Positions 3,192-64,000 of a stretch of DNA of 64,000 nucleotides are shown piece by piece. The stretch comes from Bacteriovoracaceae bacterium (GTDB taxonomy: Bacteria > Bdellovibrionota > Bacteriovoracia > Bacteriovoracales > Bacteriovoracaceae). A program made the translations under genes and the position numbers. The notes beneath the pieces are model-generated. The model was given only the letters and a program-made list of their open reading frames with translations, was not told the DNA's origin and made no database searches. The stretch lies in the NCBI GenBank assembly GCA_018649885.1, contig JABIHA010000084.1, forward strand, positions 1 through 64,000, read 5' to 3'. The first letter of the stretch is position 1. Every line of letters starts with the position of its first letter.

Positions 3192-3302
3192 ATGATCAAA
3201 ATCATTCTTTAAATTAAATGATTACGTTTTTCAAACGTAAACTTCAAATGGTACAAATAAGAACAAGCTATAAACATCAGAGTTAAAAGTGATTCGCATC
3301 AA
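3192..3302 (+). promoter_or_regulatory. Two FNR/CRP-like boxes and a palindrome upstream of the cox operon
   Basis: ATGAT-CAAA-ATCAT (3192-3205) and GTGAT-TCGC-ATCAA (3289-3302) versus FNR consensus TTGAT-N4-ATCAA; TTACGTTT-N3-AAACGTAA (3222-3240). Confidence 0.45.
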
Positions 3303-3455: not shown

Positions 3456-4145
3456 ATGCTTGATTGGATTGTCGGTTATATGCCGGAAAACATCGCTACA
3501 TTTGGTGAAGACATTGATTATGTAATTAATCTTATTGGTTACATCGTTTTTATCTGGTGGATACTAGCTGAAGGTGTTCTCTTTTATTTTCTGTTTAGTT
3601 CAAGGAAAAAAGAGGGAGTAAAAGCTACTTATGAAGATGGTAGCACTATGAAGGCCATGAGCTGGGTTTTAATTCCAGTGGTACTCGTCTTAGGCTTTGA
3701 TTTGTTTATTGATTATAAAAGTCACAGTGCTTGGGACAAAATAAAAATACAATTACCCAAGGCTGATGTTGTTTACAGAGTAATGGGACAGCAATTTGCC
3801 TGGACCTATACACACCCAGGAGTTGATGGGAAATTTGGGACAGGAGATGATTTTGAGCCTGACGATTTAGTCGTTCCCGTTCATCAAGTTGTTCACACTG
3901 TCATAAGTGCACTGGATGTTATTCACAGTCTTTGGATACCCAATCTACGTTTTAAGCAAGATTCTGTTCCCGGTAGGATTATCACGGGATGGTTTGAGGC
4001 TACCAAGACTGGGGACTATCCAATTGCATGCGCAGAACTTTGTGGAACAGGTCATGGAGTAATGGCATCAACACTAAAAGTTCTTGAAGCTGATGCTTAT
4101 AAAAGTTGGGTTGCTCAGCAATCTGCAGCAGCTTTAGCACAGTAA
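3456..4145 (+). CDS. coxB: Cytochrome c oxidase subunit II
   Basis: Two TM helices, GQQFAWTYT, DVIHSLWIP, CuA motif CAELCGTGHGVM. Confidence 0.95.
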   Translation: MLDWIVGYMPENIATFGEDIDYVINLIGYIVFIWWILAEGVLFYFLFSSRKKEGVKATYEDGSTMKAMSWVLIPVVLVLGFDLFIDYKSHSAWDKIKIQLPKADVVYRVMGQQFAWTYTHPGVDGKFGTGDDFEPDDLVVPVHQVVHTVISALDVIHSLWIPNLRFKQDSVPGRIITGWFEATKTGDYPIACAELCGTGHGVMASTLKVLEADAYKSWVAQQSAAALAQ

Positions 4146-4180
4146 AACCAATATTAAACTTCTAAATTGAGGAATTTTTT

Positions 4181-5848
4181 ATGACAAGTCATCAGAGTAA
4201 TTTTTGGAATTATTATATTTTTTCCAAAGATCACAAAATGATCGCAAAACAGTATTTGATCACAGGCCTCATCATGGCACTGCTTGGTGGACTTATGGCC
4301 TATGTGTTTAGAATGCAATTGGCCTTTCCAGGCGAAGCTGTTCCTGGTTTTGGCGATGTTGATTCAGGAACCTATAACCAATTAATCACACTTCATGGAA
4401 CCATTATGGTTTTTTGGGTTGGGATGCCCATTTTACTGGGGGCGTTTGGTAACTTTTTAATACCTTTAATGATTGGTGCAGATGATATGGCTTTTCCGAC
4501 ATTAAATATGATGTCTTACTGGACTTTTTTTGTCAGTACTCTTGTTCTGCTTGCTTCATTTTTTGTGGAAGGAGGACCGGCTTCTTCGGGCTGGACTGCA
4601 TACCCACCACTTTCGGCAAGGCCTGAATATTCAGGTGTGATGTGGGGTATGAACTTATGGATCTTGGCAGTGGCCTTGGAATTTTTCTCAGTTTTAATGG
4701 GTGGTGTAAATTATCTAACGACTACTTTTAATATGAGAACCAAGGGAATGAAGTTTTCAAGGATGCCGATGTTTGTTTGGATGCAACTGGCAGCGACTGT
4801 GAATTTCATGTTCAGTGTGGGACCTCTGATTGCTGGAGCGTTGATGCTTCTCCTAGATAGAACTATTGGCACTTCATTTTTCGTACCAGATAAAGGTGGG
4901 GATCCTCTTTTATATCAACACCTTTTTTGGTTTTTTGGTCACCCTGAGGTGTATGTTCTATTACTTCCCTCTCTTGGTATTGTGGCTGAAATCATTCCTA
5001 CCTTTTCAAGAAAACCTCTTTTTGGTTACAAAATGATTTTGATTTCAACGGCATTTTCAAGTGTCCTGGCCTTTATGGTTTGGGCCCATCACCAGTTTAT
5101 AAGTGGAATGGACCCGAGAATGGCCATGCCATTTGGACTGCTGACTATTATTATCTCAGTGCCATTTGCAGTTGTTCTCTTCGCTTATATTGCAACCTTA
5201 TGGAAAGGCTCGATTACGTTTACAACTCCATTTCTGTTTGCCATTGCCATGATTGCGGAGTTTTTAATTGGTGGTGTTACAGGGATTATTAATGGTGCGG
5301 CAGCTGCTGATATTTACGTCCATGACACTTATTATGTTGTAAGTCACTTCCATTTTACACTGGTACCAATTACGATTTTTGGAATGCTGGCTGGTGTTTA
5401 TTATTGGTTTCCAAAATTCTTTGGAAGGATGATGAATGAAACACTTGGTAAAATCCACTTTTGGATAACTGCAATCACCTTTAACGTTATTTTCATTCCT
5501 CTACTTCAAATGGGAATGGGTGGGCATCAAAGAAGAATTCCAGATCCGACTGAATTTGAGTATCTAAAAGGTATGATGGGAATGCACAAAACAGCGACCA
5601 TCGCACTCATTATACTCCTAATAGCTCAAGCCTTCTTTATATTTAATTTCTTCTACTCAATGTATAAGGGGAAAAAGGCAGAAGCGAATCCTTGGAAATC
5701 TACAACACTTGAATGGGATGCACCGTCACCGCCAGTGGCTCATGGCAATTTTGAAGTTATACCAAAGGTTTATCGGGGTCCATATGAGTATAGCGTTCCT
5801 GGATGTAAGCAAGATTGGTCACCACAGTCGGCAGAAACTGTTAATTAA
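4181..5848 (+). CDS. coxA: Cytochrome c oxidase subunit I (A-family, A1-type GHPEVY motif)
   Basis: TLHG, DMAFP, GWTAYPPL, WFFGHPEVY, WAHH, HDTYYVVSHFH and RR motifs. Confidence 0.97.
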   Translation: MTSHQSNFWNYYIFSKDHKMIAKQYLITGLIMALLGGLMAYVFRMQLAFPGEAVPGFGDVDSGTYNQLITLHGTIMVFWVGMPILLGAFGNFLIPLMIGADDMAFPTLNMMSYWTFFVSTLVLLASFFVEGGPASSGWTAYPPLSARPEYSGVMWGMNLWILAVALEFFSVLMGGVNYLTTTFNMRTKGMKFSRMPMFVWMQLAATVNFMFSVGPLIAGALMLLLDRTIGTSFFVPDKGGDPLLYQHLFWFFGHPEVYVLLLPSLGIVAEIIPTFSRKPLFGYKMILISTAFSSVLAFMVWAHHQFISGMDPRMAMPFGLLTIIISVPFAVVLFAYIATLWKGSITFTTPFLFAIAMIAEFLIGGVTGIINGAAAADIYVHDTYYVVSHFHFTLVPITIFGMLAGVYYWFPKFFGRMMNETLGKIHFWITAITFNVIFIPLLQMGMGGHQRRIPDPTEFEYLKGMMGMHKTATIALIILLIAQAFFIFNFFYSMYKGKKAEANPWKSTTLEWDAPSPPVAHGNFEVIPKVYRGPYEYSVPGCKQDWSPQSAETVN

Positions 5849-5862
5849 TAAGGAGTATTATA

Positions 5863-6444
5863 ATGAGCGCAAGTACAGCGACAAATACCGTAGAAACAGA
5901 ACCCATGTTAGCTCCCCATGGACGCTTGGGAATGTGGATGTTTTTGGCATCAGAAGTTGTCGTCTTTGGAGGACTTCTCGCATCTTATATCTTTGCAAGG
6001 TTAAGACATTCGAGCTGGGATGAATTTGCTTCACAAACTATGACTTCAATAGGATGTATCAATACTGTCCTTCTACTAACTTCAAGTTTATTTATTGTTC
6101 TCTCACATCACTGGGCCGAACGTAAGGATATTAAAAAATCTGGCAAATATATGTTGTGGGCCATTTTACTTGGAGTCTTATTTTTAGTTTTTAAAGGCTA
6201 TGAGTATCAACATGAATTCGCCAAGGGTATTACACCTCTGACGAACTTATTTTGGTCATACTATTTCTTTATCACTGGACTGCATGCTCTGCATATTGTG
6301 ATAGGGCTTGTTATAAATGCTTTAACGTTAAGGGAAATTAGAAAAGGGCAAAATCTCCAAAGAGTCGAAGTCGCAGGACTTTATTGGCACTTTGTAGATG
6401 TTGTTTGGATTTTTGTTTTCCCACTCTTTTATGTGGCTTCTTAA
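5863..6444 (+). CDS. coxC: Cytochrome c oxidase subunit III
   Basis: GMWMFLASE, TGLHALH, YWHFVDVVW. Confidence 0.93.
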   Translation: MSASTATNTVETEPMLAPHGRLGMWMFLASEVVVFGGLLASYIFARLRHSSWDEFASQTMTSIGCINTVLLLTSSLFIVLSHHWAERKDIKKSGKYMLWAILLGVLFLVFKGYEYQHEFAKGITPLTNLFWSYYFFITGLHALHIVIGLVINALTLREIRKGQNLQRVEVAGLYWHFVDVVWIFVFPLFYVAS

Positions 6445-6469: not shown

Positions 6470-6769
6470 ATGTCATCTGATCAAGTAGATATGGGTCATC
6501 TCACCCCTAAAACATATACGATTATTTGGGCCATCCTATTGGGACTGCTCTTTTTAAGCCTCTTTGCTGGTATGGTAAAAAGTCCAGTACTCGCAACAGT
6601 AATGATTTTTGGTGTGGCGATTATTAAAGCAGTGATGGTGATGTTTTATTACATGCACCTGAAAGTTGAAATTGTGTATGTAAAAGTTGCTGTGCTTGCA
6701 GGGTTTTTGGCACTATTCTTTTTTGTCGTTGGGGTATATCCCGATGTTGTTGGGCAATTTAGCAAATGA
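6470..6769 (+). CDS. coxD: Cytochrome c oxidase subunit IV
   Basis: Three TM helices, KA..V...YMHLK motif, operon position. Confidence 0.85.
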   Translation: MSSDQVDMGHLTPKTYTIIWAILLGLLFLSLFAGMVKSPVLATVMIFGVAIIKAVMVMFYYMHLKVEIVYVKVAVLAGFLALFFFVVGVYPDVVGQFSK

Positions 6770-7359
6770 GTACAGCCGATCTTGAATTAAGGGAGCGGGC
6801 AATCGTTCCTAAAAATATGTTTGGACTAATATTGGCCCTTTGTGTAGAGGTGATGGTTTTTTCAGGGCTTCTCACTTCTTTTGTTGTTCTTAAGTACCAC
6901 CAAGTGGTGTGGCCACCTGTTGATCAGCCTAGGTTCCCGGTTTATGTAACAGCTATAAATACGCTAATTATAATTTTTTCTGGTATTGCTTGGAATCGAA
7001 TTTTTAAGTTTAAAGACAACGCAAACCGCGCTGAAGCTGCAAAATTTGCGTTGATTTCGGTTTTATTTATGATGACCTTTTTTGTTGTCCAAGGAGTTGA
7101 GTGGTTTATGCTTTTTAAGCATGGACTAACACTTTCTGATGGTGTGTATGGAGGGATCTTTTGCACTATCATTGGTTTTCATGCTGTACATGTAGTTATT
7201 GCTATAATCACCTTATTAATTACAAGAAATAAAATTTTAAATACAAATATCGATGACGTTAAGTTATTTGGATCAGATGGTATTTTGAATCTTGTCAGAC
7301 TTTACCTTTGGTTTGTTATTGGAGTGTGGCCTTGCATTTTTGCTATCGTATATTTCTAG
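6766..7359 (+). CDS. Second, divergent subunit III-like protein
   Basis: EVMVFSGL, WPP, INT, GFHAVH; ATGA overlap with coxD. Confidence 0.85.
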   Translation: MSTADLELRERAIVPKNMFGLILALCVEVMVFSGLLTSFVVLKYHQVVWPPVDQPRFPVYVTAINTLIIIFSGIAWNRIFKFKDNANRAEAAKFALISVLFMMTFFVVQGVEWFMLFKHGLTLSDGVYGGIFCTIIGFHAVHVVIAIITLLITRNKILNTNIDDVKLFGSDGILNLVRLYLWFVIGVWPCIFAIVYF

Positions 7360-7559
7360 TCATTCTCATCTTACTACCCATTCAGGCAATTGCCTGCCCG
7401 TATTGCTTTTCTTCAAATGGCGAGGATTCCATAAAGGCATATATTGGAACCACCTTAGCTCTTATTGCTTTGCTGGTTGTATTATTTGGCAGTGTGGCCT
7501 TTTTTGTTTATAAGAATTATAAAAAGGCGCATTCAGTAGGTGAATCAAAAGAAGATTAG
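7326..7559 (+). CDS. Small membrane protein with CPYC motif
   Basis: Signal-like segment, AIACPYCFS, one TM helix, basic tail. GTG at 7326 (track start 7308); overlaps the end of the second subunit III gene. Confidence 0.7.
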   Translation: MALHFCYRIFLVILILLPIQAIACPYCFSSNGEDSIKAYIGTTLALIALLVVLFGSVAFFVYKNYKKAHSVGESKED

Positions 7560-7600
7560 CCTGCATCGTTAATTGCTGCGCCTTGTGGTTAAGGTGTGTG

Positions 7601-8398
7601 ATGTCCATTGAAGATGAATTCCAAAAATGTGTTTATGGTCCAGTTAGATCTTGGCGATTTGGTCTCTCCCTTGGAATTGATCCTATCTTTCACAACTCAA
7701 CCTGTTCTTTTAGCTGCATCTACTGCCAGTTGGGAAATATCCAAAACATAACAGATAAAAGAGATGAGTTCGTATCAACTAGTAAGGTTGTAGGTGATTT
7801 TAGAGAATTCTCACAAAAAAATATTCCCTATGATGTCATCACGTTCTCAGGAAATGGTGAGCCAAGCCTTGCCAAAAATTTTGCACAGATGAGCTTGGGC
7901 ATCAGAGAACTGGCGACCCATAAACCGCAATTTATTCTCACCAACGGAACGCTTTTAAATGATAGTGAAGTTCGTGATGATTTAAAGCTAATGGACAAAG
8001 TGATTATTAAATTAGATGCATGTAGTGAAGAACAATACAGTGCTGTTAACCGACCTGCCGGGGGCTTGAGCTTTTTAAAATTAATTGATGGGATCATAAA
8101 ATTTAAAAGTGAGTACAATGGAGAGATTGAAATTCAATCAATGTTTCTACCAATCAATTCAAACCAAATTGAAGAATTTGCAGACTTGGTAAATCAAATT
8201 TCCCCACAATGTGTTCAAGTTAATTTACCAAAAAGGCCTTATCCCAGTGTTTGGAGCAGGCATCACCGTGGAAATCATGAGCTAGAATTTAAATGTGACT
8301 TCAATTGGCTTAAAACTATTAGCGAAGGCCAAGTGAAGTCCATTTTAAAAACTCTTTCAGAGAAAACAAAAGTCGAGCTTATTTCCCCTCTTAGATGA
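7601..8398 (+). CDS. Radical SAM protein (COG0731-like)
   Basis: VYGPVRSWRFGLSLGID, CSFSCIYC, FSGNGEP, LTNGTL. ATG at 7601 preferred (track start 7583). Confidence 0.9.
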   Translation: MSIEDEFQKCVYGPVRSWRFGLSLGIDPIFHNSTCSFSCIYCQLGNIQNITDKRDEFVSTSKVVGDFREFSQKNIPYDVITFSGNGEPSLAKNFAQMSLGIRELATHKPQFILTNGTLLNDSEVRDDLKLMDKVIIKLDACSEEQYSAVNRPAGGLSFLKLIDGIIKFKSEYNGEIEIQSMFLPINSNQIEEFADLVNQISPQCVQVNLPKRPYPSVWSRHHRGNHELEFKCDFNWLKTISEGQVKSILKTLSEKTKVELISPLR

Positions 8399-12488: not shown

Positions 12489-12980
12489 CTACGTAAGCGT
12501 TGGTTCATTAATACTTTGAAATTTAGGGAGCATGATTTCGTCACCATCACCAACATCCGCATTAACTTGCTCGGCCATTTGATATAGGACATTGTTTTCT
12601 TTATCAATATGGGCCCTGATCAAATCAATGAAATTGGTCAGAGATTCTTTAACTTGCTCTTCACTATGAGTAGGATCACTTTTTATTTTATCCATCTCGG
12701 CCACGGCCGTTTTGATGAAAGATCGCCCCTTATTGTGTTCATCGAGCATGCAGTGAATAGGTCCCCCCTCAAACATGGGGTTTTTATCGATCATCCATTT
12801 AAAATAAATATCTTCTTCTTTGGCGTGGTGAAATTCGTCAGCGTATTTTTGGATAAATTCAATGGTCTTATCAATTGCTTCAATATTTTCACTTACCTTT
12901 GACTCCAGTGTCTGCTCAAGCTGGGAAACTCTGGCCAAAATAGTTTCATGTTCTTTCATTAGTATTTCAGTGCATTGCAT
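12489..12980 (-). CDS. Hemerythrin HHE domain protein
   Basis: LMKEH, HHAKEE, EH, HIDKEN. Confidence 0.9.
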   Translation of the reverse strand: MQCTEILMKEHETILARVSQLEQTLESKVSENIEAIDKTIEFIQKYADEFHHAKEEDIYFKWMIDKNPMFEGGPIHCMLDEHNKGRSFIKTAVAEMDKIKSDPTHSEEQVKESLTNFIDLIRAHIDKENNVLYQMAEQVNADVGDGDEIMLPKFQSINEPTLT

Positions 12981-34998: not shown

Positions 34999-35094
34999 CA
35001 TTTTGAACCAGATCATTTTGGCCCCAGGGGCCATAATAGAATACTAAAACAATAAGATTTATTGAGTTTTCAGTGGCTTAGCTGTGCCAAGTTT

Positions 35095-35110
35095 TGGCCT
35101 GGGGCTTGCT
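35095..35110 (+). promoter_or_regulatory. sigma54 -24/-12 promoter
   Basis: TGGCCTGGGGCTTGCT with GG at 35096-97 and GC at 35108-09, canonical spacing. Confidence 0.65.
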
Positions 35111-35120
35111 TTATAGAGAG

Positions 35121-35321
35121 CATCCGGGTTGAAGACGACTAATTAAATAAGTCGCCTGGTCCAAGATAATTGAAAGATTGTCCATCACACACACCTACCT
35201 TCTTCAACCCATTACCCGAGAGCAAGCGAATGTAAGCTCTCTCCCAACAGATCTACTACCCCACCTTTAGGACAAATACTTTTAACCCCGGACCAGGCCA
35301 CACTTATTTGTGTGACCTTTT
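35121..35321 (+). ncRNA. Candidate structured small RNA of unknown family
   Basis: No ORF. Hairpin cgact/agtcg; long stem cctggtcc/ggaccagg plus ttgaaag/cttttaa and ttgtcc/ggacaa; inner gagagc/gctctc hairpin; terminal cacac/gtgtg hairpin plus TTTT. Confidence 0.55.
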
Positions 35322-35423
35322 ACTGATCCCAGTTTGAATTTCAAGTGGCGTATTCCTCATCGGAGTGTGCTACACGCCTTCTTCGTCATCCACCACTTGA
35401 AATCCAAACTGGAATCAGTAAAA
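35318..35423. repeat. 31-bp inverted repeat (2 mismatches) with 44-nt spacer
   Basis: ttttactgatcccagtttgaatttcaagtgg (35318-35348) and ccacttgaaatccaaactggaatcagtaaaa (35393-35423). Confidence 0.9.
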
Positions 35424-35536
35424 CTGCCATAGCTCATGTTTTAGAATGACTAATTTTTCCTTACTCTCTTTTAACTTTCGCTCCAGTCAGATCGCTCTAT
35501 AATATAAAGCGGTAAACTTATATATTAGGAGCTGAA

Positions 35537-35983
35537 ATGAAAGCTGAAGACTTCATGACAAAAAATGTTATTTCATGCAACGAAAATAGTACTGTAAAAC
35601 AAGCAGCTGAAATTATGCTAGAGCATGGTGTTGGCGGCCTACCCATTGTTAACGATGCTGGAGATTTGGTAGGAATTCTTACTGAGTCAGATTTTGTGGG
35701 AAAGAAAGTTGATATTCCCCATGCGCTTGTCTCTATGAAACAGCTCTTTGGTGAAACCTTTTTCCATGGAAGCGTTGATGATATTTTTGCCAAGGCCAAA
35801 GATTATAAACTCCATGATGTTATGACTAAAAACCCAATCACCGTTGCACCGGACGCTAGCCTAACTGAGGTCAGTACTCAAATGCTTGAGAGAAAAATCA
35901 ATAGATTGCCGGTGGAAAAAGATGGAAAGCTTATTGGCTTTATCACTAGAAAAGATCTTTTACGGGCATTTATAAAACTCTAG
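35537..35983 (+). CDS. CBS domain pair protein
   Basis: MTKNVIS, GLPIV, LVGILTESD, RLPV, GFITRKD. Confidence 0.93.
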   Translation: MKAEDFMTKNVISCNENSTVKQAAEIMLEHGVGGLPIVNDAGDLVGILTESDFVGKKVDIPHALVSMKQLFGETFFHGSVDDIFAKAKDYKLHDVMTKNPITVAPDASLTEVSTQMLERKINRLPVEKDGKLIGFITRKDLLRAFIKL

Positions 35984-36110
35984 TCCCCAATAGGAACACG
36001 ACCTTTTTTCTGAGGAACACTTTTGGTTACGAATGAGGCGTCGCGCCTTGGCGTCAACTAGATCCCTTTGTTAGCTCTATGAATTCAATCAAATTCGAGG
36101 AGAATTTCTA

Positions 36111-36500
36111 ATGAAAAAAGTAATATTAATGTCAGCATTTTGTTTTTCAGTGGCCGCCAGTGGGCAAACTTGTTTTCAACTTTCAAAAGATGGGACTGCT
36201 TTTGCTAAAACACCAGAGCTTCTTTGTATGGAAGAAGTAGGCGACGCCAAGTACAGCTTTACTTTAGAGACGGGACTCTTTGCAAGAGAAGTTCATGTGA
36301 GTTATCAGCTAGATTTAATATCTCAAGCTGAATGTTTGGCCTGCAGAGTTTCAAGCTACGCAATTAGAAACCCTTCAAATTCTACTTATTCTGAATCAGC
36401 TCAAATTAGCTTTAATGGAAAAGTTAATATTTGGGATGGTGCTAAAGAAAGTGGAACTGTAACAGTTGCAGGAAAAAAATATTTTTACAGATCATTTTAG
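36111..36500 (+). CDS. Hypothetical secreted protein
   Basis: GAGGAG RBS, signal peptide. Confidence 0.8.
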   Translation: MKKVILMSAFCFSVAASGQTCFQLSKDGTAFAKTPELLCMEEVGDAKYSFTLETGLFAREVHVSYQLDLISQAECLACRVSSYAIRNPSNSTYSESAQISFNGKVNIWDGAKESGTVTVAGKKYFYRSF

Positions 36501-36516
36501 GTTAGTACCTAATAAA

Positions 36517-36541
36517 CTGAAGGATGCTTTGCATCCTTCAG
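36517..36541. terminator. Hairpin between convergent genes
   Basis: ctgaaggatgc-ttt-gcatccttcag, a perfect 11-bp stem. Confidence 0.85.
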
Positions 36542-36551
36542 CTTCTGCCAT

Positions 36552-36923
36552 CTAGTTAACACAAAGACAGTTAAATTTTGTATACATTCTGGTGATCCCA
36601 TTGCTTCCAGCTGCCAGACACACTGGAGTCAGAGTATTTCCATTTTTGTAATAATTATTACCAAATACAGTTCCTCTTCCAGGTTTTCCTCTTCTGGCCA
36701 CAACTACCCTGCATAGGTAAGTAGAATCAATACCACTAGGTACTGTGTAGGTACCTTTTTCAGCAATGTAGGTTTCATTTTCACGACAAGCAATGTGGCA
36801 AGCCTTACCAGCATTTGGAATCCAAACCACATCTTTATTAGATACAACACTAGTTTGAATGGGGCTTGCAAATGTTAGCGGTGATAGGCCCGCTAGTAAT
36901 AGAATTAATAATGTTTCTTTCAT
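36552..36923 (-). CDS. Small secreted Cys-rich hypothetical protein
   Basis: ATG 36923 with GAGGGAG RBS (track start 36959), signal peptide, six Cys. Confidence 0.75.
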   Translation of the reverse strand: MKETLLILLLAGLSPLTFASPIQTSVVSNKDVVWIPNAGKACHIACRENETYIAEKGTYTVPSGIDSTYLCRVVVARRGKPGRGTVFGNNYYKNGNTLTPVCLAAGSNGITRMYTKFNCLCVN

Positions 36924-37059
36924 TTTCTCTCCCTCTTTGTGCAGAAGACACTTCTGCAATATTTTTGCTATAATGACACCAGCGTTTATTCAAGATCTCT
37001 TGGGATATTGATGAGAAGATCGTGGTAAATTAATGAAACCATAATGCTAGGAGTGGGTA

Positions 37060-37533
37060 ATAAAGGTATTAATAGAATTAGAAGAGCAACTTAGTTTTGA
37101 CGATGCAAAAGACTTACTTTTGTTATCTGAGCCTTGGAAAACCCTTAATTTTAACGAAAGTGATATTCAAAAAATTGTCGCCGACTCCAAGAACTCTTTT
37201 TTATTAGTTACCAGAGACTCTGAAAAACTAGCGGGCTTTGCACTATTTAGTGAAGGATTTTTAAAAGGGTGTTATCTCAAAATTTTGGCCGTTGATTCAG
37301 ACTATCGAGGCAAAGGAATCGGGGGGCAACTACTTAGAGAATTTGAAAAAATAAGTTTTAAAAAATCTCCCAATGCCTATTTGTGCGTAAGTGATTTTAA
37401 TAAATCTGCAGTTGGGTTTTATCAAAAACATGGCTATGAGGAAATCGGAACACTTACTGATTTTCTGGTAGAGGGAAAGGGCGAGATCTTTTTGAGAAAG
37501 AGCATTGGCAGTATCGCCAGTTTTGAAAAGTAA
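37060..37533 (+). CDS. GNAT acetyltransferase
   Basis: LAVDSDYRGKGIGGQLL, N..A..FY.K.GY. Track start is TTG 37120; an in-frame ATA at 37060 follows AGGAG. Confidence 0.85.
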   Translation: MKVLIELEEQLSFDDAKDLLLLSEPWKTLNFNESDIQKIVADSKNSFLLVTRDSEKLAGFALFSEGFLKGCYLKILAVDSDYRGKGIGGQLLREFEKISFKKSPNAYLCVSDFNKSAVGFYQKHGYEEIGTLTDFLVEGKGEIFLRKSIGSIASFEK

Positions 37534-37630
37534 TTTTGAAAAGAGCAATGCGTTAATTAACGAAATATTTACAGTCACATTCTTTTTTAAAAACACTCGT
37601 GCTAGCTAAGGCCTTTGGAGAAGATTAAGT

Positions 37631-57409: not shown

Positions 57410-59386
57410 TTATTGGTAAGTGAATGTCTGGCTATCAAGTCCATCCGAAACATCAAGTTTTCTATAAAGACTGCGTTTCTTCTCTTGATGAAACTCCATC
57501 TTGCTTAGAATATTTCCTAGAGTCTCAACGGCCAAGTCAATATATGGTCCCTTATTTAGCATCACACATTCGGCCCTCACAGACATTGCAGCATCTGTGA
57601 TTTCGGCCCTAGATGGGAGACCGGTACGGGCCAGATTTTCCAATACTTGGGTGGCCCAAATGACTGGGATATGACAAGCTTCACACAACCACAATATTTC
57701 TTCTTGAAGCTCAGCTAGTCTTTCAAAACCACACTCTACCGCTAAGTCTCCTCTGGCGATCATTACACCAACATTCGGATGTTTGAGAGATGATAGAAGA
57801 ATACGCCCTAGGTTATTAAAACCGGAGTTTGTCTCAATTTTGAGGTAGATACCAATATCTCTACTAGTAATCTGTGCCAGTTTCTTTAGGAAACTTTCAA
57901 CATCTTCATGACACCTAACAAATGATAAACCGATTAAGTCTGCATATTTTGCGGCAAACTCTAAATCTTTTAGATCTTTTTGTGTAGGCCACTTAATTAA
58001 AAGCTCAGAGTCAGGAAAATTGACACCCTTGAAGGATTTGAGCTTACTTCCCTCAATTTTGGCCCGAGTAATATTTAGAGTAAAGCGTGGGAAATCGATT
58101 TCTTTTATTTGTCCCGCAATTTTTCCATCATCGAATAGGATGCGGTCTCCGATTTTTAGTGAACGCAACTCTTCGTTTAGATTGCAAGTGACTTGGGCTG
58201 GAGTGATTTTCTTTCCTGTTTTTTTAGAAAATCTTGCATTGGCACCTAAGATATTTGAGTTTTCACCGCAGGCCCAAAAGTATATGTCTTCGCCGACATT
58301 TAGCTCAACATGGCCCAAATCGTGTGTTGGGAATACAAGTTTGAATTGAAAGACTTTTTCTCTGCTTTTTAGATACAGATCTGAGGATCTAGTGAGATAG
58401 ATTGATTTTTTACTTTCTACTACAACTTCACCAGGATGAACTTCACAAACACATAGTTTTCTCTTTTTCTTCCTACAGTCTTTTAGGTAAATTCGATCAC
58501 CTTTTTTGAAATTCTCAAATGTCTCATCTTGAACATAAAAAATTGAGGGAGCAATAGACTTTGCTTCTCGGTTTTTAAATGAGAGTGGTCGAATAGAAAA
58601 TTTTCCCGCTTCAGAAATTTTTCCATAGATATCTTTTCTGGATTTGAGTCTAAAGACCTGATCTTCCTCGGCAATTTGGCCGGTTCTAATTTTGGGGCCG
58701 GCGAGATCCATGCCTACCTTGCACTCACGCCCTTCCATACTTGAGGCAGTTTTTAATTGCTCAATGATACTTTTCCACTGCTCGGGACCTTCATATGCAC
58801 AGTTGACTCTAAGGATATTCATTCCCGCTTTCAACTGCTTTCTAAACCAATTGATATCAACTTCACTTGATTTAGGACAAGTCACCATTATGCTAATATG
58901 TCTGTCGCTAGGAATTTCACCCAAAAGTTTACTCGCATTTTCTGTTAGAATTTCTTGGCCTTTTTCGAAGCTGAGAGAGTGATTTCCATCAATTTCATTG
59001 TCTAACGTATTTTGTTCTTCCTCACTCAGACCATACATTTGTGAGACTCTTTTAATTACGTGCTCAAGTGTATTCATCACACTCGCTTCAGATCGACCCA
59101 GTGAAGAGAGGCCGTATTTGGGAAGCTTATGTTGAAGATGTCTAAGGTCTACTCCTCTTAAGGCCATATAATGAATAAAGTTCTTAGCACTTAGCTGTTT
59201 TGTTTCTCCCAGACTCGAAAAAAGGTGAGAGTGTTCAGTTGCATAATTTTGGATGTACTTTCTTAATTCGATCAAGTCACTTAGTAGAACTTGAAGCTCA
59301 TTTACTTGACCTTGGGGTGGATGTTGAAGATTCACTTTCTTCCCCTTCTTTATAAATCTTAAACTTGGTAGGATATTGCTCCTCAA
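57410..59386 (-). CDS. pyk: Pyruvate kinase (long variant)
   Basis: RVNCAY, DLAGPKIRTG, DDGKI, KGVN.P, SFVR, KIET, ARGDL, ATQVLE, RAEITD. GTG 59335 is a possible start. Confidence 0.9.
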   Translation of the reverse strand: MRSNILPSLRFIKKGKKVNLQHPPQGQVNELQVLLSDLIELRKYIQNYATEHSHLFSSLGETKQLSAKNFIHYMALRGVDLRHLQHKLPKYGLSSLGRSEASVMNTLEHVIKRVSQMYGLSEEEQNTLDNEIDGNHSLSFEKGQEILTENASKLLGEIPSDRHISIMVTCPKSSEVDINWFRKQLKAGMNILRVNCAYEGPEQWKSIIEQLKTASSMEGRECKVGMDLAGPKIRTGQIAEEDQVFRLKSRKDIYGKISEAGKFSIRPLSFKNREAKSIAPSIFYVQDETFENFKKGDRIYLKDCRKKKRKLCVCEVHPGEVVVESKKSIYLTRSSDLYLKSREKVFQFKLVFPTHDLGHVELNVGEDIYFWACGENSNILGANARFSKKTGKKITPAQVTCNLNEELRSLKIGDRILFDDGKIAGQIKEIDFPRFTLNITRAKIEGSKLKSFKGVNFPDSELLIKWPTQKDLKDLEFAAKYADLIGLSFVRCHEDVESFLKKLAQITSRDIGIYLKIETNSGFNNLGRILLSSLKHPNVGVMIARGDLAVECGFERLAELQEEILWLCEACHIPVIWATQVLENLARTGLPSRAEITDAAMSVRAECVMLNKGPYIDLAVETLGNILSKMEFHQEKKRSLYRKLDVSDGLDSQTFTYQ

Positions 59387-59598
59387 TGTCGCAAATTGTA
59401 ATGATTTATCTCACTTTGGGTAGAGTTTACAGACAGCTTTGTAGATGATTCGTTTTGCACTGGGCGAGAAATCAATTGAGTCAGCTATAGTCATGTATTT
59501 TTTTCAAAAACAAGCTCAGGGGAAGCTCCAAGGTCTGTCCGTTAAAATCGACAATTTATAGGATCTATGTAACTGTAATTGATCTGATTAAAAGGAAT

Positions 59599-61113
59599 TT
59601 GAATATGGGCGTTAAATGGATTTTCCCGCTTCTTTGGGTCTTACTTATTACTCAAGTTGTTTCTTGCTCTTCTGTGGGACGAAAGCAAACTGCCAAGTTT
59701 CGCCAACTTGTTAAAACTGGGCAGTACAAAGCAGCTAGTAAAATGGCCCATGGGGAGAAATTTCATTCCTCTAAAAAATCAGCACTTCTACGTTTGATCG
59801 AGACGGGACTAGTTGATCATTTTGCTGGCTATCATCATCTTTCAGCTCAAACATTTGAGAAGGCCCGCGAGCTAGGGAATAAATTATTTACAGTTAGCAT
59901 AAGTAAAAAAATAAAAACAGTTATAGTTGATGATACTTCAGATAATTATTATCCCAGCATGATGGTGCAATCACAGATTCGATTTTATCTAGCACTAAAT
60001 TATTATCTCGTTTCCACTCAGAAAAACTATCTCGCTCAAGCAGTTAACGATAAAAAAGATGAAAGTGAACAGGATTGGCAAGATAAACTTGTGGCAACTG
60101 AGCTCTCTGATGTTGATCGTAAAAATTATTTAATGAAATCTAGAGCCATACTTCTTGAGTGGGATTCGTTGATAAAAAACTTTCTTTCCCAATTTAAAGG
60201 AGATCCTGTTTTTAAAAATGATATGTCTCACAAATTATTGGGTGCTATTATCCATGAATCGGTTGGAACAAATATTGATCGTACAATCGCTAAGAATTTA
60301 CTGTTAGATGCTAAAAAATTACTCAACCGCAATTATGCTATGTACGACTATTTTAATCTAAATAATAAAAAATACATAAGTGATTTTGATACACTTCATA
60401 ATCTTAAAGAAAGCGAATTCAAAAAAAACTATATCGCTCCCACTTCCAGATATCACCAATTGATATCTTATGTGGATCAGCAAGTTAAGAGGCTTAAGAG
60501 TAAAAAGAATCGATCTAATTTCTCCTTGATTTTACAATACGGAATGGTTCCAGCAAAAGTTCAAAATGTGACCTATGTACCACTACCTGTCACTACCGGT
60601 CTTTCTATGAGTTACACAAATATTAAATTGCCAAAAATTACGCGCAAGAATCATCTCTACGATTTTTCACTTGAAATTCAAAAAAAAGGTAGTGAAAAAA
60701 AGGAGTTGATTCCTCTTGTCACAATGAATCCTATTTCAAGCATTGTGTATCGTGAATTTACAGAGGAGCTACCAGGAATCCAGGCCAAAACAATCGCCCG
60801 CTTTGTTACGAAACAAGTTGCAGCAGCAGCTTCAGGTGTTGCGGCCACTAATACCAAAGGAGGAGTCGCAGCAGGATTTGCTGTTTTGTCTTTAGCAAGT
60901 ACCATTTCTCAAGCTGTAGAGCAGGCAGATACTCGTCAATGGTCGATTCTTCCTCATGAGGCCCTATTGGGCAGGACCTATTTAGACTCAGGGGAATACC
61001 TTGTTCATTTAATCTCCATGAAAAATGGTAAAGAACTTCATCGAAAACTCATAAAAGTCGCCACAATTAATTCTGAAACTTCAAATGTATTAAATATAAA
61101 GATAGGTGATTAA
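59599..61113 (+). CDS. COG3014-like lipoprotein
   Basis: VVSC lipobox, TPR-like N-terminal region, EQADTRQWSILP. Confidence 0.75.
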   Translation: MNMGVKWIFPLLWVLLITQVVSCSSVGRKQTAKFRQLVKTGQYKAASKMAHGEKFHSSKKSALLRLIETGLVDHFAGYHHLSAQTFEKARELGNKLFTVSISKKIKTVIVDDTSDNYYPSMMVQSQIRFYLALNYYLVSTQKNYLAQAVNDKKDESEQDWQDKLVATELSDVDRKNYLMKSRAILLEWDSLIKNFLSQFKGDPVFKNDMSHKLLGAIIHESVGTNIDRTIAKNLLLDAKKLLNRNYAMYDYFNLNNKKYISDFDTLHNLKESEFKKNYIAPTSRYHQLISYVDQQVKRLKSKKNRSNFSLILQYGMVPAKVQNVTYVPLPVTTGLSMSYTNIKLPKITRKNHLYDFSLEIQKKGSEKKELIPLVTMNPISSIVYREFTEELPGIQAKTIARFVTKQVAAAASGVAATNTKGGVAAGFAVLSLASTISQAVEQADTRQWSILPHEALLGRTYLDSGEYLVHLISMKNGKELHRKLIKVATINSETSNVLNIKIGD

Positions 61114-61177
61114 TATTCTAGCTTAAAAATTGATCTTAAATTATATATACGCTACATTTTTATATTGTAAAAATTAG

Positions 61178-61705
61178 ATGGGAGTAAAGATGGAACTTAC
61201 GAGATTTTTATTAGTGCTAGTTTTTTGTTTTTCAGGAAATGTTTTTTCTAGCGAGTTAGAATTTAAAAATCTTCAACTAAATCCAACCACAGCGCAGTCT
61301 AGAAATATAGCCTCAAGTGGATCTAGCTCAGGAATATTTTCTACAACTAATCTCGCATGGACTACAATGACTTTTATTGCAGCAACGGCCCTTACAGGAA
61401 AAGAGAAAACGGCCACCTCTACACACCTTTCTCTAGCTTCTCTTGCAGGCTTAAGCTACGGTGCTTTCATTCACTCATATTTTAATGATGACGAGGCCAA
61501 ATCTCATACTGTCGCCGGGTGGTCTAAATGGTTTCACATCCCAGCAATGGTTCTTCTTCCAATTGCAGGTGCTGTTGCTCAAAGACAATTTGATAAGAAA
61601 GGCAAAAATTCAGCTTCTGGAATTGGATCTATTCACAAGCCAGCGGCACTAGCAGCTGTAGTGGCCATGTCACTTACTGCTCTTTCACTGACTTTCGAAT
61701 TCTAA
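61178..61705 (+). CDS. Hypothetical membrane protein with His-bearing TM helices
   Basis: Signal peptide, RNIAS, about four TM helices with His. Confidence 0.7.
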   Translation: MGVKMELTRFLLVLVFCFSGNVFSSELEFKNLQLNPTTAQSRNIASSGSSSGIFSTTNLAWTTMTFIAATALTGKEKTATSTHLSLASLAGLSYGAFIHSYFNDDEAKSHTVAGWSKWFHIPAMVLLPIAGAVAQRQFDKKGKNSASGIGSIHKPAALAAVVAMSLTALSLTFEF

Positions 61706-61706
61706 A

Positions 61707-62141
61707 TTAGCGGTTAAAGTTTTTTTCGCCATCATCGTCGTAATTAAATTTCTTACCACTTTTTTGCGGTTTTTTAGATGGCGATGGTGAAGGTGAGTGC
61801 TTTTTTGATTGTGTATTCTTAGCATTAAAATTCTTAGTGGGACCGTACTGCCTTCGGTATGTTTTTGATTTAGAAAATTCACTTTGCTGAGTTGTTCGAA
61901 AGTCATCATGAATTTCTGATTTATCAGCACAGTTAGAGCAGATCCATTCGGCGCTAATGAGAGCATTTTTGTGAACAAAGCGCTCAACATCTCGTTGATA
62001 ACAATTGCATATCTCACAGAAGTTTCTATCTTCTTGGTGTGATTCACTTTGCTTTTTTTGTTTTGTGGCCTTTACCGTTCTTTCATTTTGCGCTTTGGTA
62101 CTATTGTATCCAGCTTTTTTTAGTGCATCTTTCATAGACAT
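61707..62141 (-). CDS. Hypothetical basic protein with two CxxC motifs
   Basis: AGGAG RBS, CEIC and CSNC. Confidence 0.8.
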   Translation of the reverse strand: MSMKDALKKAGYNSTKAQNERTVKATKQKKQSESHQEDRNFCEICNCYQRDVERFVHKNALISAEWICSNCADKSEIHDDFRTTQQSEFSKSKTYRRQYGPTKNFNAKNTQSKKHSPSPSPSKKPQKSGKKFNYDDDGEKNFNR

Positions 62142-62363
62142 ACTACTTCTCCTGCTATGCCGATAGATCTGTAATTACACTACTTTATACTAATAAAGCC
62201 CTGGTTTTTCAATATTATGATTGATTCAAGGTTTCAAAGCTCATTCGCCCCGATGCAAAAAAACTACGAATTATCCACATTATGGACGCTAAGTATGTAG
62301 ATTTTTTAGACTCTTAGGCCGTTTGATCATTAATTTGTTAATTAAGTTTTGAGGATAGAGATT

Positions 62364-62620
62364 ATGAAATATTTTACTAAATTACTTTTTTGTAGTGGCC
62401 TACTCATTTGCTGGGTTGCCCAGGGCACAGAACTCGATAGTCTTACATTAGGGATGCCCAGCTGATGGACTCTCTTGAAGTTATTGACGAGGAAGTTAAC
62501 CGGAGGATGGAGCTAGCACTGAGTGAAATGAAAGATGGAGGTGATTGTAAAGCAGGCCATATTTTACACGCCGTTGGCTCAAAACTCGCGGCCCCTTGGC
62601 TTTTAAATCCAAATTTTTAA
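62364..62620 (+). pseudogene. Frameshifted, truncated secreted-protein gene remnant
   Basis: GAGG RBS, MKYFTKLLFCSGLLICWVAQGTELDSLTL, stop at 62463-65; the shifted frame continues RDAQLMDSLEVIDEEVNRR... to TAA 62620. Confidence 0.55.
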
Positions 62621-62628
62621 ATAGTTTT

Positions 62629-63315
62629 TTATTCAACAGTAAGCTTAGCTTCTTGGAGAAGAGTGGAGTATTTATAGTTGTAGCCAAAGTCTTTATCAAT
62701 GACGACTTTTCCTGAAACAACGATTGTATCACCAACTTTTACCGTATCATTTGTAGTCACAGTTAAGTCGTGGCTTCCATTTTTTCCACTTCCATCTTGC
62801 ACATGAACCCAATTGAGCTTCATGATTTTTGGAGAAAATTTAACAACTTTCCCTCTCACCTGAACTGTTTTATTTACTAGTTTTTTTCTTTTTGTGTGTA
62901 TTTCAGAAACTAAGTATTGAGCCTTTTTAATACTGCCCATTTTGACTTTAGAGCTTACTCCGCCAGCTTTTTTTTGCAGTTGGATAAAACTGGTGAAATA
63001 GATTTTCTTAAAAGTTCTACCGAGTGTCTTACTGGTGAAATTCACCATCGGGTTTCCTTTAATAAACTCTACCTGATCACCTTTTTGTAGTGAAACCTTT
63101 GTGGCAGCTGTCCACAGTTTTTCCTTTTTATTATCAATAAGCACATAGGTGTAACCACCAGAGTTCATCGTTTCAACTACAACACCTTTGTGTAATAGTT
63201 TTGGATCTATCTTGCCTGCTTTTTTTGCAACTTTATCACGTGGAAACGCGTATAGAGTTGAAGAGAAAACAATTACTAGAAGTAAAAAAACTGATTTAAG
63301 AGAAGACATATTCAT
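62629..63315 (-). CDS. Periplasmic tandem OB-fold protein
   Basis: Signal peptide, VVETMNSGGYTY..W.A, V.VRGKVVK..IM..NWVH.QDG. Confidence 0.8.
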   Translation of the reverse strand: MNMSSLKSVFLLLVIVFSSTLYAFPRDKVAKKAGKIDPKLLHKGVVVETMNSGGYTYVLIDNKKEKLWTAATKVSLQKGDQVEFIKGNPMVNFTSKTLGRTFKKIYFTSFIQLQKKAGGVSSKVKMGSIKKAQYLVSEIHTKRKKLVNKTVQVRGKVVKFSPKIMKLNWVHVQDGSGKNGSHDLTVTTNDTVKVGDTIVVSGKVVIDKDFGYNYKYSTLLQEAKLTVE

Positions 63316-63475
63316 ACCACTACCTTGAAAAGTTAATAGTTATTGTTTGATCACGCAATATAGCAAATTCTTGTGACTTTGAGATAGGGTTTTCTTAACT
63401 TTTAATTTTTGCAACGCGATGAATTTGGGCAAAAACCTGCCTTAGACCATGCTTTTTGGGCCTCTATCAATACTT

Positions 63476-64000
63476 CTATAGATTTAGCGAGAGCGACCAA
63501 GCAAAGACAAGTTGTGCTCCGTAATATAAAGGAAGCCCGATCAGTCGATTTACAAACTCTTCTTTTACAAAGCGATTTCTCGCTACTGCAATATCAGAGA
63601 AATAAAATAGAAGGGCAGCCATAAGAATTACCTTTGGTGCTCCAGCCCCTACGACAGAAAATGCTGAGATCACCATCAAGGAGATCACGCTTATGTAGGC
63701 AATAACAGGAATCTTAAAATCACTTGAGATACTTTTTGAAAGTTGGGTCCAAATTAATTTTCCTAGTACGGTGATGAAGGCAAGGCCCACAAGCATCCAG
63801 GTAGCACTAAATACTTTTTGACCGAGGATAAAGGCTACCATGTAAAAGAGATGACCAATTAAGAAAGAAGCAATCCCCATTTTAAATATTTTTTCTTTGG
63901 GAGAGAGAAGAAATAGATCTCCAAAGAGACAAAAGACCATAGAGATAGCAATTCCTTTTCCATAAAAGCCTTTATCCCAGGCTCCCAGTGATAGTGCCAA
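63476..64000 (-). CDS. YhhN-family lysoplasmalogenase, 5' part outside the window
   Basis: GDLFLL, FLIGHLFY, FYFSD, YY.AQ. Confidence 0.88.
   Translation of the reverse strand: MALSLGAWDKGFYGKGIAISMVFCLFGDLFLLSPKEKIFKMGIASFLIGHLFYMVAFILGQKVFSATWMLVGLAFITVLGKLIWTQLSKSISSDFKIPVIAYISVISLMVISAFSVVGAGAPKVILMAALLFYFSDIAVARNRFVKEEFVNRLIGLPLYYGAQLVFAWSLSLNL

Follow-up and report, generated by a model that had tools for sequence, protein, structure and literature searches.

The first 64,000 nucleotides of contig JABIHA010000084.1 (assembly GCA_018649885.1) from a Bacteriovoracaceae bacterium, which we refer to as the window, carry a cytochrome c oxidase operon whose subunit II and subunit I genes, designated coxB (3456..4145) and coxA (4181..5848), encode an enzyme without the classical K-channel of A-family heme-copper oxidases. 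Coordinates of genes and residues in the window refer to the + strand unless indicated otherwise. We propose that this enzyme is an accessory O2 reductase with a rebuilt proton site at the interface of the two subunits, in which a new carboxylate, Glu167 of CoxA, retunes the top of the D-channel and pumping is probably reduced. This reading was drawn from sequence comparison and is given a probability of about 0.5. CoxA and CoxB in all likelihood form an intact A1-type cytochrome c oxidase that reduces O2 to water, and a rebuilt proton route at the interface is on balance probable. Loss of the K-channel is itself already known; the marks of this clade were not found in the papers searched.

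Residue equivalences were taken from a phmmer alignment of CoxA to chains of the Protein Data Bank (PDB); P. denitrificans numbers were counted from that alignment, and bovine and R. sphaeroides numbers come in part from an earlier note on this DNA. Helix VIII (5156..5185) aligned without a gap, with IIISVPFAVVLFAY in the window against IIAVPTGIKIFSW in 7jro and 1ar1 and against AISIPTGVKIFNW in 6kob, so that an error of register, against which the earlier note had cautioned, was rejected. Within this helix Phe329 stands for bovine T316, Val332 for K319, Ala335 for S322 and Ser326 for A313. In helix VI, Ala269 (4985..4987) replaces the K-channel residue S255. In CoxB, the K-channel entry Glu (bovine E62, P. 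denitrificans E78) is replaced by Ala67 (3654..3656) in a MAFFT alignment and by Lys66 in the gapped phmmer alignment, with no Glu either way. Apart from Ser326, the earlier note had claimed these changes from inspection by eye, and all were confirmed for this gene. Two of them are not clade-wide, however, since S322 is replaced by Ala in only 79 of 120 homologs (Ser in 34, Cys in 7) and the entry Glu is absent from only 11 of 18 paired CoxB proteins. By the residue definition of type A1 enzymes (PMC3084760, Table 2), the K-channel comprises K354, T351, S291 and Y280, and CoxA keeps the Tyr only (V332, F329 and A269 stand at the other positions). CoxA falls outside that residue definition of a type A K-channel and is a member of family A by descent. 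In the predicted enzyme the classical K-channel is plugged by hydrophobic residues, namely F329, V332, A269 and CoxB A67.

The D-channel was largely retained. Residues kept in CoxA were H72, H254, E256, Y258, H303/H304, H389/H391, R451/R452, D102, N91, N109, S112 and N177, and seven of the eight residues that define the type A1 D-channel (D124, N199, N113, N131, Y35, S134, S193 and E278) were present. P. denitrificans S193 (bovine S157) is V171 in CoxA and is Ser in none of the 153 clade rows with a residue at this position. One turn above V171 is Glu167 (4679..4681; bovine A153, P. denitrificans S189), near the top of the D-channel. Metal ligands, cross-linked Tyr and Arg pair were thus all in place, as the earlier note had stated; its claim of a retained D-channel was borne out for N91, D102, N109, S112 and E256. 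It had missed the loss of S157 as well as Glu167, Ser326 and Asp82 of CoxB (3699..3701), which lies inside a predicted helix spanning residues 62-96. Glu167, Ser326 and Asp82 suggest a rebuilt route.

CoxA was predicted to adopt an A-type fold (predicted local distance difference test 91.2), with template modeling scores of 0.85-0.89 to solved aa3 and bo3 enzymes, including the canonical A1 aa3 oxidases of P. denitrificans (1ar1, 7ate), R. sphaeroides (1m56, 2gsm) and bovine origin (1occ) and the K362M mutant (3om3), with which it shares 35-42% identity. The canonical enzymes and this one have in common the six His ligands, HPEVY, the D-channel entrance, the Asn gate, the Arg pair and CuA. In contrast to them, this enzyme has replaced K319, T316, S255 and subunit II E62, has Val for S157, and has gained Glu167, Ser326 and CoxB Asp82 together with a four-residue insertion. 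The TIGR02891 score of CoxA was 601, below the cut-off of 671. The hallmark of O2 reductases, six His ligands and a cross-linked Tyr in helix VI, was present and invariant in homologs; the HPEVY motif (4940..4954) supplies the CuB ligand His254, the D-channel Glu256 and the cross-linked Tyr258, and the CuA ligands of CoxB were intact. The predicted electron path from CuA through the low-spin heme to the high-spin heme, CuB and His-Tyr site is complete. The hallmarks of C-family cbb3 enzymes (HNAV, a helix VII Tyr, cytochrome c subunits) were absent, GHPEVY and CuA being found instead, whereas true cbb3 paralogs displayed HNAV. The NCBI label "cbb3-type cytochrome c oxidase subunit I" was nevertheless attached to several A1-type proteins (P0006, P0009, P0014, P0016, P0042, P0064 and others) and is misleading. 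A b-type high-spin heme, with a vacated farnesyl groove, was considered and found unsupported; glycines of helix IX remain conserved, and the genome has a ctaA match.

The earlier note had also raised NO or H2O2 chemistry. Lys mutants of such oxidases retain peroxidase activity, a point in favor of NO or H2O2 reduction as the main function. Slow reduction of NO is moreover a property of A-, B- and C-family oxidases (PMC11214002). The NO reductases themselves lack the cross-linked Tyr (PMC11214002). Hallmarks of their types (cNOR, qNOR, bNOR, eNOR, sNOR, gNOR and nNOR), namely absence of such a Tyr, an FeB ligand that is Glu or another residue, and descent from the B or C family, were not found in CoxA, which groups with the A family, retains its CuB ligands and His-Tyr site and has no FeB Glu. 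No NO- or peroxide-related gene was recognized beside the operon among the loci listed, and the genome encodes a separate quinol-dependent NO reductase (qNOR). Because the Tyr is invariant here and missing from NO reductases, and because the cell has a qNOR, a main role in NO or H2O2 reduction is very unlikely, and the earlier suggestion was not upheld.

Conservation was assessed in the 120 best-scoring homologs, which share 61-80% identity with CoxA. Lys at position 332 and Thr at position 329 were each found in 0 of 120 (position 329 was Phe in 97, Val in 15, Ile in 7 and Leu in 1), while Glu167 and Ser326 were present in all 120 and every cofactor ligand was invariant. A second search, from one clade member, added 53 proteins with the same pattern and with cofactor residues invariant in 53 of 53. 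The clade received a support of 100 in both FastTree (170 rows) and a quick IQ-TREE run (55 rows), with a Shimodaira-Hasegawa-like approximate likelihood ratio (SH-aLRT) of 100. The distinct and conserved subfamily that the earlier note had proposed in place of decay was therefore supported by the absence of Lys from all 120 homologs and by the support for the clade. The genome does hold a second A-family oxidase, a point in favor of coxA being a decaying redundant paralog. Decay was nonetheless rejected because 173 score-chosen homologs share the pattern, and the five-gene operon is intact. Operon DNA was also present in marine metagenome runs; contigs of runs X3 and X4 span the helix VIII codons, and contigs of runs X3, X4, X6 and X10 span the CoxB helix II codons, in each case with 0 differing letters. 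Since contigs from other runs are identical, the replacements were not attributed to assembly or sequencing error, and with the ungapped alignment of helix VIII an artefact, like decay, is scarcely credible.

Clade rows, 155 in number, were those with at least 51% identity and no Lys (P0215 and L017 were dropped by hand). At position 167 these rows have Glu in 152, Asp in 1 and a gap in 2, whereas only 1 of 305 rows outside the clade has an acid there and none of the 194 Lys-bearing rows has Glu. Glu167 was also absent from the Oligoflexia- and Elusimicrobia-type Lys-less rows. Other changes specific to the clade lie in helices V and XI (F209, G214-P215, and Phe, Leu in this gene, at 442 for the usual His). 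Bovine residue 153 separates the D-channel from a water cavity and is located at a distance of 10 Å from E242 (PMC7341133). When Asp was engineered in place of Ser here in the R. sphaeroides enzyme, pumping is reported to have been abolished and protons to have entered from the periplasmic side (PMC7341133, citing Namslauer 2007).

Glu167 mimics this engineered Asp, which raises the question of whether the enzyme is an uncoupled O2 reductase, an electron sink or O2 scavenger with little or no pumping, in which some of the chemical protons would arrive from the periplasmic side via Glu167 or Asp82. The clade is patchy in occurrence: at E <= 1e-190 it was found in 3 of 300 other genomes of the host phylum and in none of the 67 from the host family. 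This pattern and its usual place beside other oxidases or NO reductases are consistent with such a role. We consider it unlikely, as the D-channel entrance, Asn gate, E256, D377/H381/D382 and Arg pair are conserved as in a pump, the operon has retained both subunit III genes, which a pump would be expected to do, and Glu differs from Asp in a setting where the surrounding helices IV and V have been remodeled (V171, G214-P215).

A D-channel-only O2 reductase is a further alternative. In this case all protons, chemical and pumped, would pass from D102 through E167 to E256. Glu167 would be a second donor inside the channel and would allow it to serve the reductive phase, and Ser326 and CoxB Asp82 would merely repair packing and a hydrogen bond of the Tyr. 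Seven of eight D-channel residues (PMC3084760 definition) are kept and invariant, the lower K-channel is wholly hydrophobic in this gene, and Glu167 is a near-constant feature of the clade that Lys-bearing rows lack. On the other hand, Oligoflexia, Elusimicrobia and Acidobacteria Lys-less types share Ser/Thr326 and the CoxB acid without Glu167, and packing would be a costly role for a buried carboxylate gained repeatedly. A D-channel-only enzyme is accordingly seen as possible but doubtful.

Position 326, one turn above the lost Thr of helix VIII, was compared across a wider set. From 150 representatives at 50% identity, 9 were dropped for gaps or lack of the Pro anchor, and Lys was absent from 50 of the 141 that could be scored. 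Ser or Thr at 326 was present in 32 of 35 Lys-less representatives other than those with Gln or His, and Ser in 1 of 91 Lys-bearing ones. On the tree, with Gln/His rows excluded, 6.4 of 7 independent pairs agreed in the association of Ser326 with Lys loss and 0 opposed it (median p = 0.016, range to 0.125).

Subunit II was assessed in 138 paired operons, comprising 59 Lys-bearing pairs, 18 of the clade, 28 other Lys-less pairs, 30 of an HPWVY type and 3 with Lys replaced by Gln. The Lys-bearing pairs have the entry Glu in 59 of 59, a helix II segment of 19 residues, and an acid in mid-helix in 0 of 59. An Asp or Glu at CoxB column 82 was found in 18 of 18 clade pairs and in 26 of 28 other Lys-less pairs; in the remaining 2 the acid aligns at column 82 in a smaller alignment. 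Helix II of CoxB is four residues longer in the window than in Lys-bearing relatives, and the segment is nearly always 4-6 residues longer in acid-bearing Lys-less CoxB proteins (20 residues in clade row L019). Both Ser326 and the mid-helix acid recur among the predicted oxidases of other Lys-less lineages.

About two protons are supplied by the K-channel upon reduction of the active site, and the other six by the D-channel (PMC6934443, PMC8239185). As the K-channel is lost and the reductive protons are still required, an alternative donor is inferred. Electrons would follow the path given above and reduce O2 to water. The one or two K-channel protons would instead be delivered by a remodeled polar site where subunits I and II meet. 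Two residues would form it: Ser326, whose place a turn above the lost Thr would bring it near Tyr258, and Asp82 of CoxB, in a helix longer by one turn. Optional interface acids might include CoxB Glu39 of helix I (3570..3572), which is common and not invariant (Glu in 13 of 17 clade rows listed), and CoxA Glu331 or Glu360 (5258..5260; bovine L347, helix IX). Glu167 would act as a second carboxylate near Glu256 that retunes the gate, with pumping probably below 1 H+/e-. Glu360 was considered as a general replacement for the Lys and rejected, as it is present in only 40 of 120 homologs; Glu331 and Glu360 are confined to subclades, and both are missing from 93 of 155 clade rows. One such subclade (L006-L014, L016, L119, L122-L125, L129) has Glu331 next to the position of the lost Lys, and in its subunit II the Pro of helix II is followed by a His. 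Some Glu331-bearing members also retain the CoxB entry Glu, and this subclade possibly uses a Glu-based K-channel.

The clade lies inside a supergroup that includes a-III, Acidobacteria-, Elusimicrobia- and Bacteriovorax-type enzymes, within A-family subunit I. A branch with the E167 clade, Oligoflexia and Elusimicrobia on one side had a support of 79, and a sister relation between the clade and Elusimicrobia-type rows was neither rejected nor shown (p = 0.50, approximately unbiased (AU) test). A tree in which the Lys-less rows of the supergroup all share one origin was rejected (p-AU = 1e-64), and two Acidobacteria-like Lys-less rows clustered with Lys-bearing rows (support 99). Because a single Lys-less origin was rejected, the pairing of Lys loss with a compensating trait recurs. 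Separate Lys losses were also observed in Acidobacteria-like oxidases at loci L164, L194 and L017, each with Thr326 and a Glu in subunit II helix II. A broader proposal is that Lys-less A-family oxidases have repeatedly evolved a third type of proton entry, formed by a subunit II carboxylate that has shifted from the cytoplasmic mouth to mid-membrane and by a helix VIII Ser/Thr, and that the present clade is partly uncoupled via the acid at position 153, with some chemical protons of periplasmic origin. This would make it an energy-spilling or O2-scavenging oxidase on a pump scaffold, and we regard the proposal as speculative and rather improbable. Named members are metagenome-assembled genomes (MAGs) of Deltaproteobacteria, Myxococcota, Binatia, Eisenbacteria, Latescibacterota, NC10, Bacteroidota, Spirochaetales and Oligoflexia, and no cultured member was seen among the named clade homologs. 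The clade is widespread and known only from genomes.

The K-channel had been described as near-invariant in the A family, which does not hold given the 50 of 141 representatives without Lys and the many Lys-less A1 and A2 subclades in PMC8239418. Lys-less A-family subclades with K354 replaced by a hydrophobic residue and subunit II E78 lost have been catalogued (PMC8239418; preprint 10.1101/2020.03.01.968255), the A1 members including Elusimicrobia, bacterium HR19, Methylacidiphilum, Halobacteriovorax, Bacteriovorax and Aeropyrum (PMC8239418). The "Oligoflexia" subclade (Halobacteriovorax, Bacteriovorax) and the "KC channel" subclade (Elusimicrobia, HR19, Methylacidiphilum) of Degli Esposti et al. 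2021 (PMC8239418) have the same A1 motif, the loss of K354 and usually of E78, and belong to the same supergroup. The "Oligoflexia" pattern Y S F S N D is found in a second A1 oxidase of this genome, on contig C132, and not in this CoxA; the ten subunit I residues tabulated for Halobacteriovorax all recur in the C132 paralog, a match that suggests a host similar to Bacteriovoracaceae. The present clade, in contrast to the "Oligoflexia" and Elusimicrobia rows, forms a separate clade with a support of 100 and carries Glu167. The HR19 row (PMC8239418) reads Y F T F S E and this CoxA Y A V F A E, with T351 replaced by Phe in both; HR19 may be a member of this clade that has already been tabulated, and no match so named was seen among CoxA homologs. 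Positions 153 and 313 and the mid-helix acid of subunit II are left unscored in the table of PMC8239418. No description of a natural Glu at position 153, of the pairing of Ser326 with a subunit II Asp, or of this clade was found in the full-text literature searched, which lay mostly outside subscription journals.

Enzymes of A1 subtype a-III with CoxMNOP-like operons (PMC6431628; Ralstonia wenshanensis L113) also have the COX3 doublet and subunit IV found here. They belong to the same supergroup and share 44-49% identity with this CoxA, yet they keep the Lys and the entry Glu, and the clade of this CoxA is separate from L112, L113 and L114, which have the Lys. The gene order is II-I-III-IV-III here versus II-I-III-III-IV in L113. 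Likewise Lys-less, and without the subunit II Glu, are the Aeropyrum A-type COX1-3 and the Acidithiobacillus rus-operon oxidases. A. pernix is assumed here to share the residues of A. camini. The A. camini row reads Y A A F S D (PMC8239418). These are distant lineages, and in the trees archaeal I+III-type Lys-less rows lie well away from the clade of this CoxA. A partly purified A. pernix oa3 oxidase, "likely" A-type, oxidizes tetramethyl-p-phenylenediamine (TMPD) at 132 umol/min/mg (PMC3062577).

Three PF00115 matches were identified in the genome (92% complete): this CoxA, the C132 oxidase and the qNOR on contig C112. A canonical Lys-bearing paralog, for which the earlier note had proposed a search, was not among them, and neither a Lys-bearing oxidase nor cytochrome bd was found in the genome. 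The C132 operon (57651-63629) is also Lys-less, with Phe at the Lys position and an Asp in the lengthened CoxB helix, and its subunit I shares 43-44% identity with CoxA. By inspection, the genes around it resemble those for subunit IV, an SCO protein, a diheme cytochrome c and heme O synthase, and the flanking genes of the qNOR (C112:3430-7559) encode an NnrS-like membrane protein and a regulator of Rrf2/NsrR type. Among 29 loci of relatives, the Bacteriovorax-type loci from the order were Lys-less in 23 of 23, and the other 6 comprised 3 Lys-bearing oxidases and 3 with Lys replaced by Gln. In four near-complete genomes of relatives, G044 (one contig, 99% complete), G005, G032 and G049, a related Lys-less A1 oxidase was the sole PF00115 match, and a search for cytochrome bd found none; for these reasons a Lys-less A1 enzyme can very probably be the main O2 reductase of a cell, which also speaks against NO or H2O2 chemistry. 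The three other genomes of the phylum that carry the clade have further enzymes, an A2 oxidase in G231, cbb3 in G280, and bd with qNOR in G287. Further PF00115 matches were carried by 14 of 15 other clade host genomes, only those in fetched loci being classified. The enzyme of this clade looks accessory. Two different Lys-less oxidases were observed within single loci of Methylococcales and related MAGs (L036, L044, L065), one of the HPWVY type, with Trp for the D-channel Glu, and the other with Lys replaced by Gln and extra helix IV glutamates.

Several observations weigh against the accessory reductase with a rebuilt interface site. The mid-helix acid was found in 0 of 30 HPWVY pairs and 0 of 3 Lys-to-Gln pairs, and since these Lys-less lineages do without it, the acid is not generally required. 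The entry-column Glu was kept in 7 of 18 clade CoxB proteins. Covariation of the CoxB acid with Lys loss amounts to 4 independent pairs only, of which 2-3 agree (p = 0.25-0.5). The proximity of Asp82, Ser326 and Tyr258 is presumed from helix register and the known structure of such enzymes. Lastly, no genome at least 90% complete was found with this clade as its sole O2 reductase, and the argument from sole oxidases applies to the sister lineage and not to this clade.

It has long been asked why an A-family oxidase should require two proton channels and what at the top of the D-channel gates its pumping, and nearly all of the work has used crippled point mutants. The clade combines two such mutants, Lys loss and an acid at bovine position 153, in an evolved and conserved form, with candidate second-site suppressors in Ser326 and in subunit II Asp82 with its added helical turn, and offers a natural test of proton uptake and pumping in these enzymes. 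Genome annotation is also affected: for such environmental oxidases, several of which are labeled "cbb3-type" by NCBI, classing A1 enzymes by their residues may fail, and so may the assumption that 4 protons are pumped per O2.

The operon is compact. Genes were assigned from open reading frame (ORF) calls and homology, coxB encoding subunit II with a CuA site and coxA an A1-type (GHPEVY) subunit I with all six His ligands intact. They are followed by coxC1 (5863..6444), subunit III-like; coxD (6470..6769), a caa3-type subunit IV above the TIGR02229 cut-off; coxC2 (6766..7359), a second subunit III-like gene; and an ORF for a small membrane protein with a CPYC motif (7308..7559, start uncertain), which had weak BLAST matches downstream of the operon in loci L006, L007 and L075. 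The II-I-III-(IV)-III gene set recurs among the clade loci listed. An FNR/Crp-like palindrome (3289..3302) lies 154 bp upstream of coxB and has 1 mismatch to the consensus. Such matches numbered 12 in the window versus 6.9 expected, and at least 12 were found in 7 of 100 shuffles, so the site is not clearly above chance. The GC content of the operon was 38.9% versus 38.3% for the genome, a composition that gives no sign of recent transfer. A plasmid collection held no match of at least 60% identity (best 48.5%), and a search of the window against Rfam returned no match.

Directly upstream of the operon is a gene for a tyrosinase-family copper enzyme (2086-2991), no homolog of which adjoins the clade operons listed, and immediately downstream is one for a radical SAM protein (7583-8398). 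A hemerythrin-domain protein is encoded nearby (12489-12980, - strand). Elsewhere in the window, a region of about 2.6 kb (34999-37630) has no ORF of at least 150 aa and no Rfam match, and a 658-aa protein (57410-59386, - strand) matches only portions of the pyruvate kinase barrel (PF00224). A protein cut by the contig end (1-1770, - strand) has at least 14 PGPKK repeats after a stretch of Cys-rich repeats (PF01607, chitin-binding-like, E = 2e-11).

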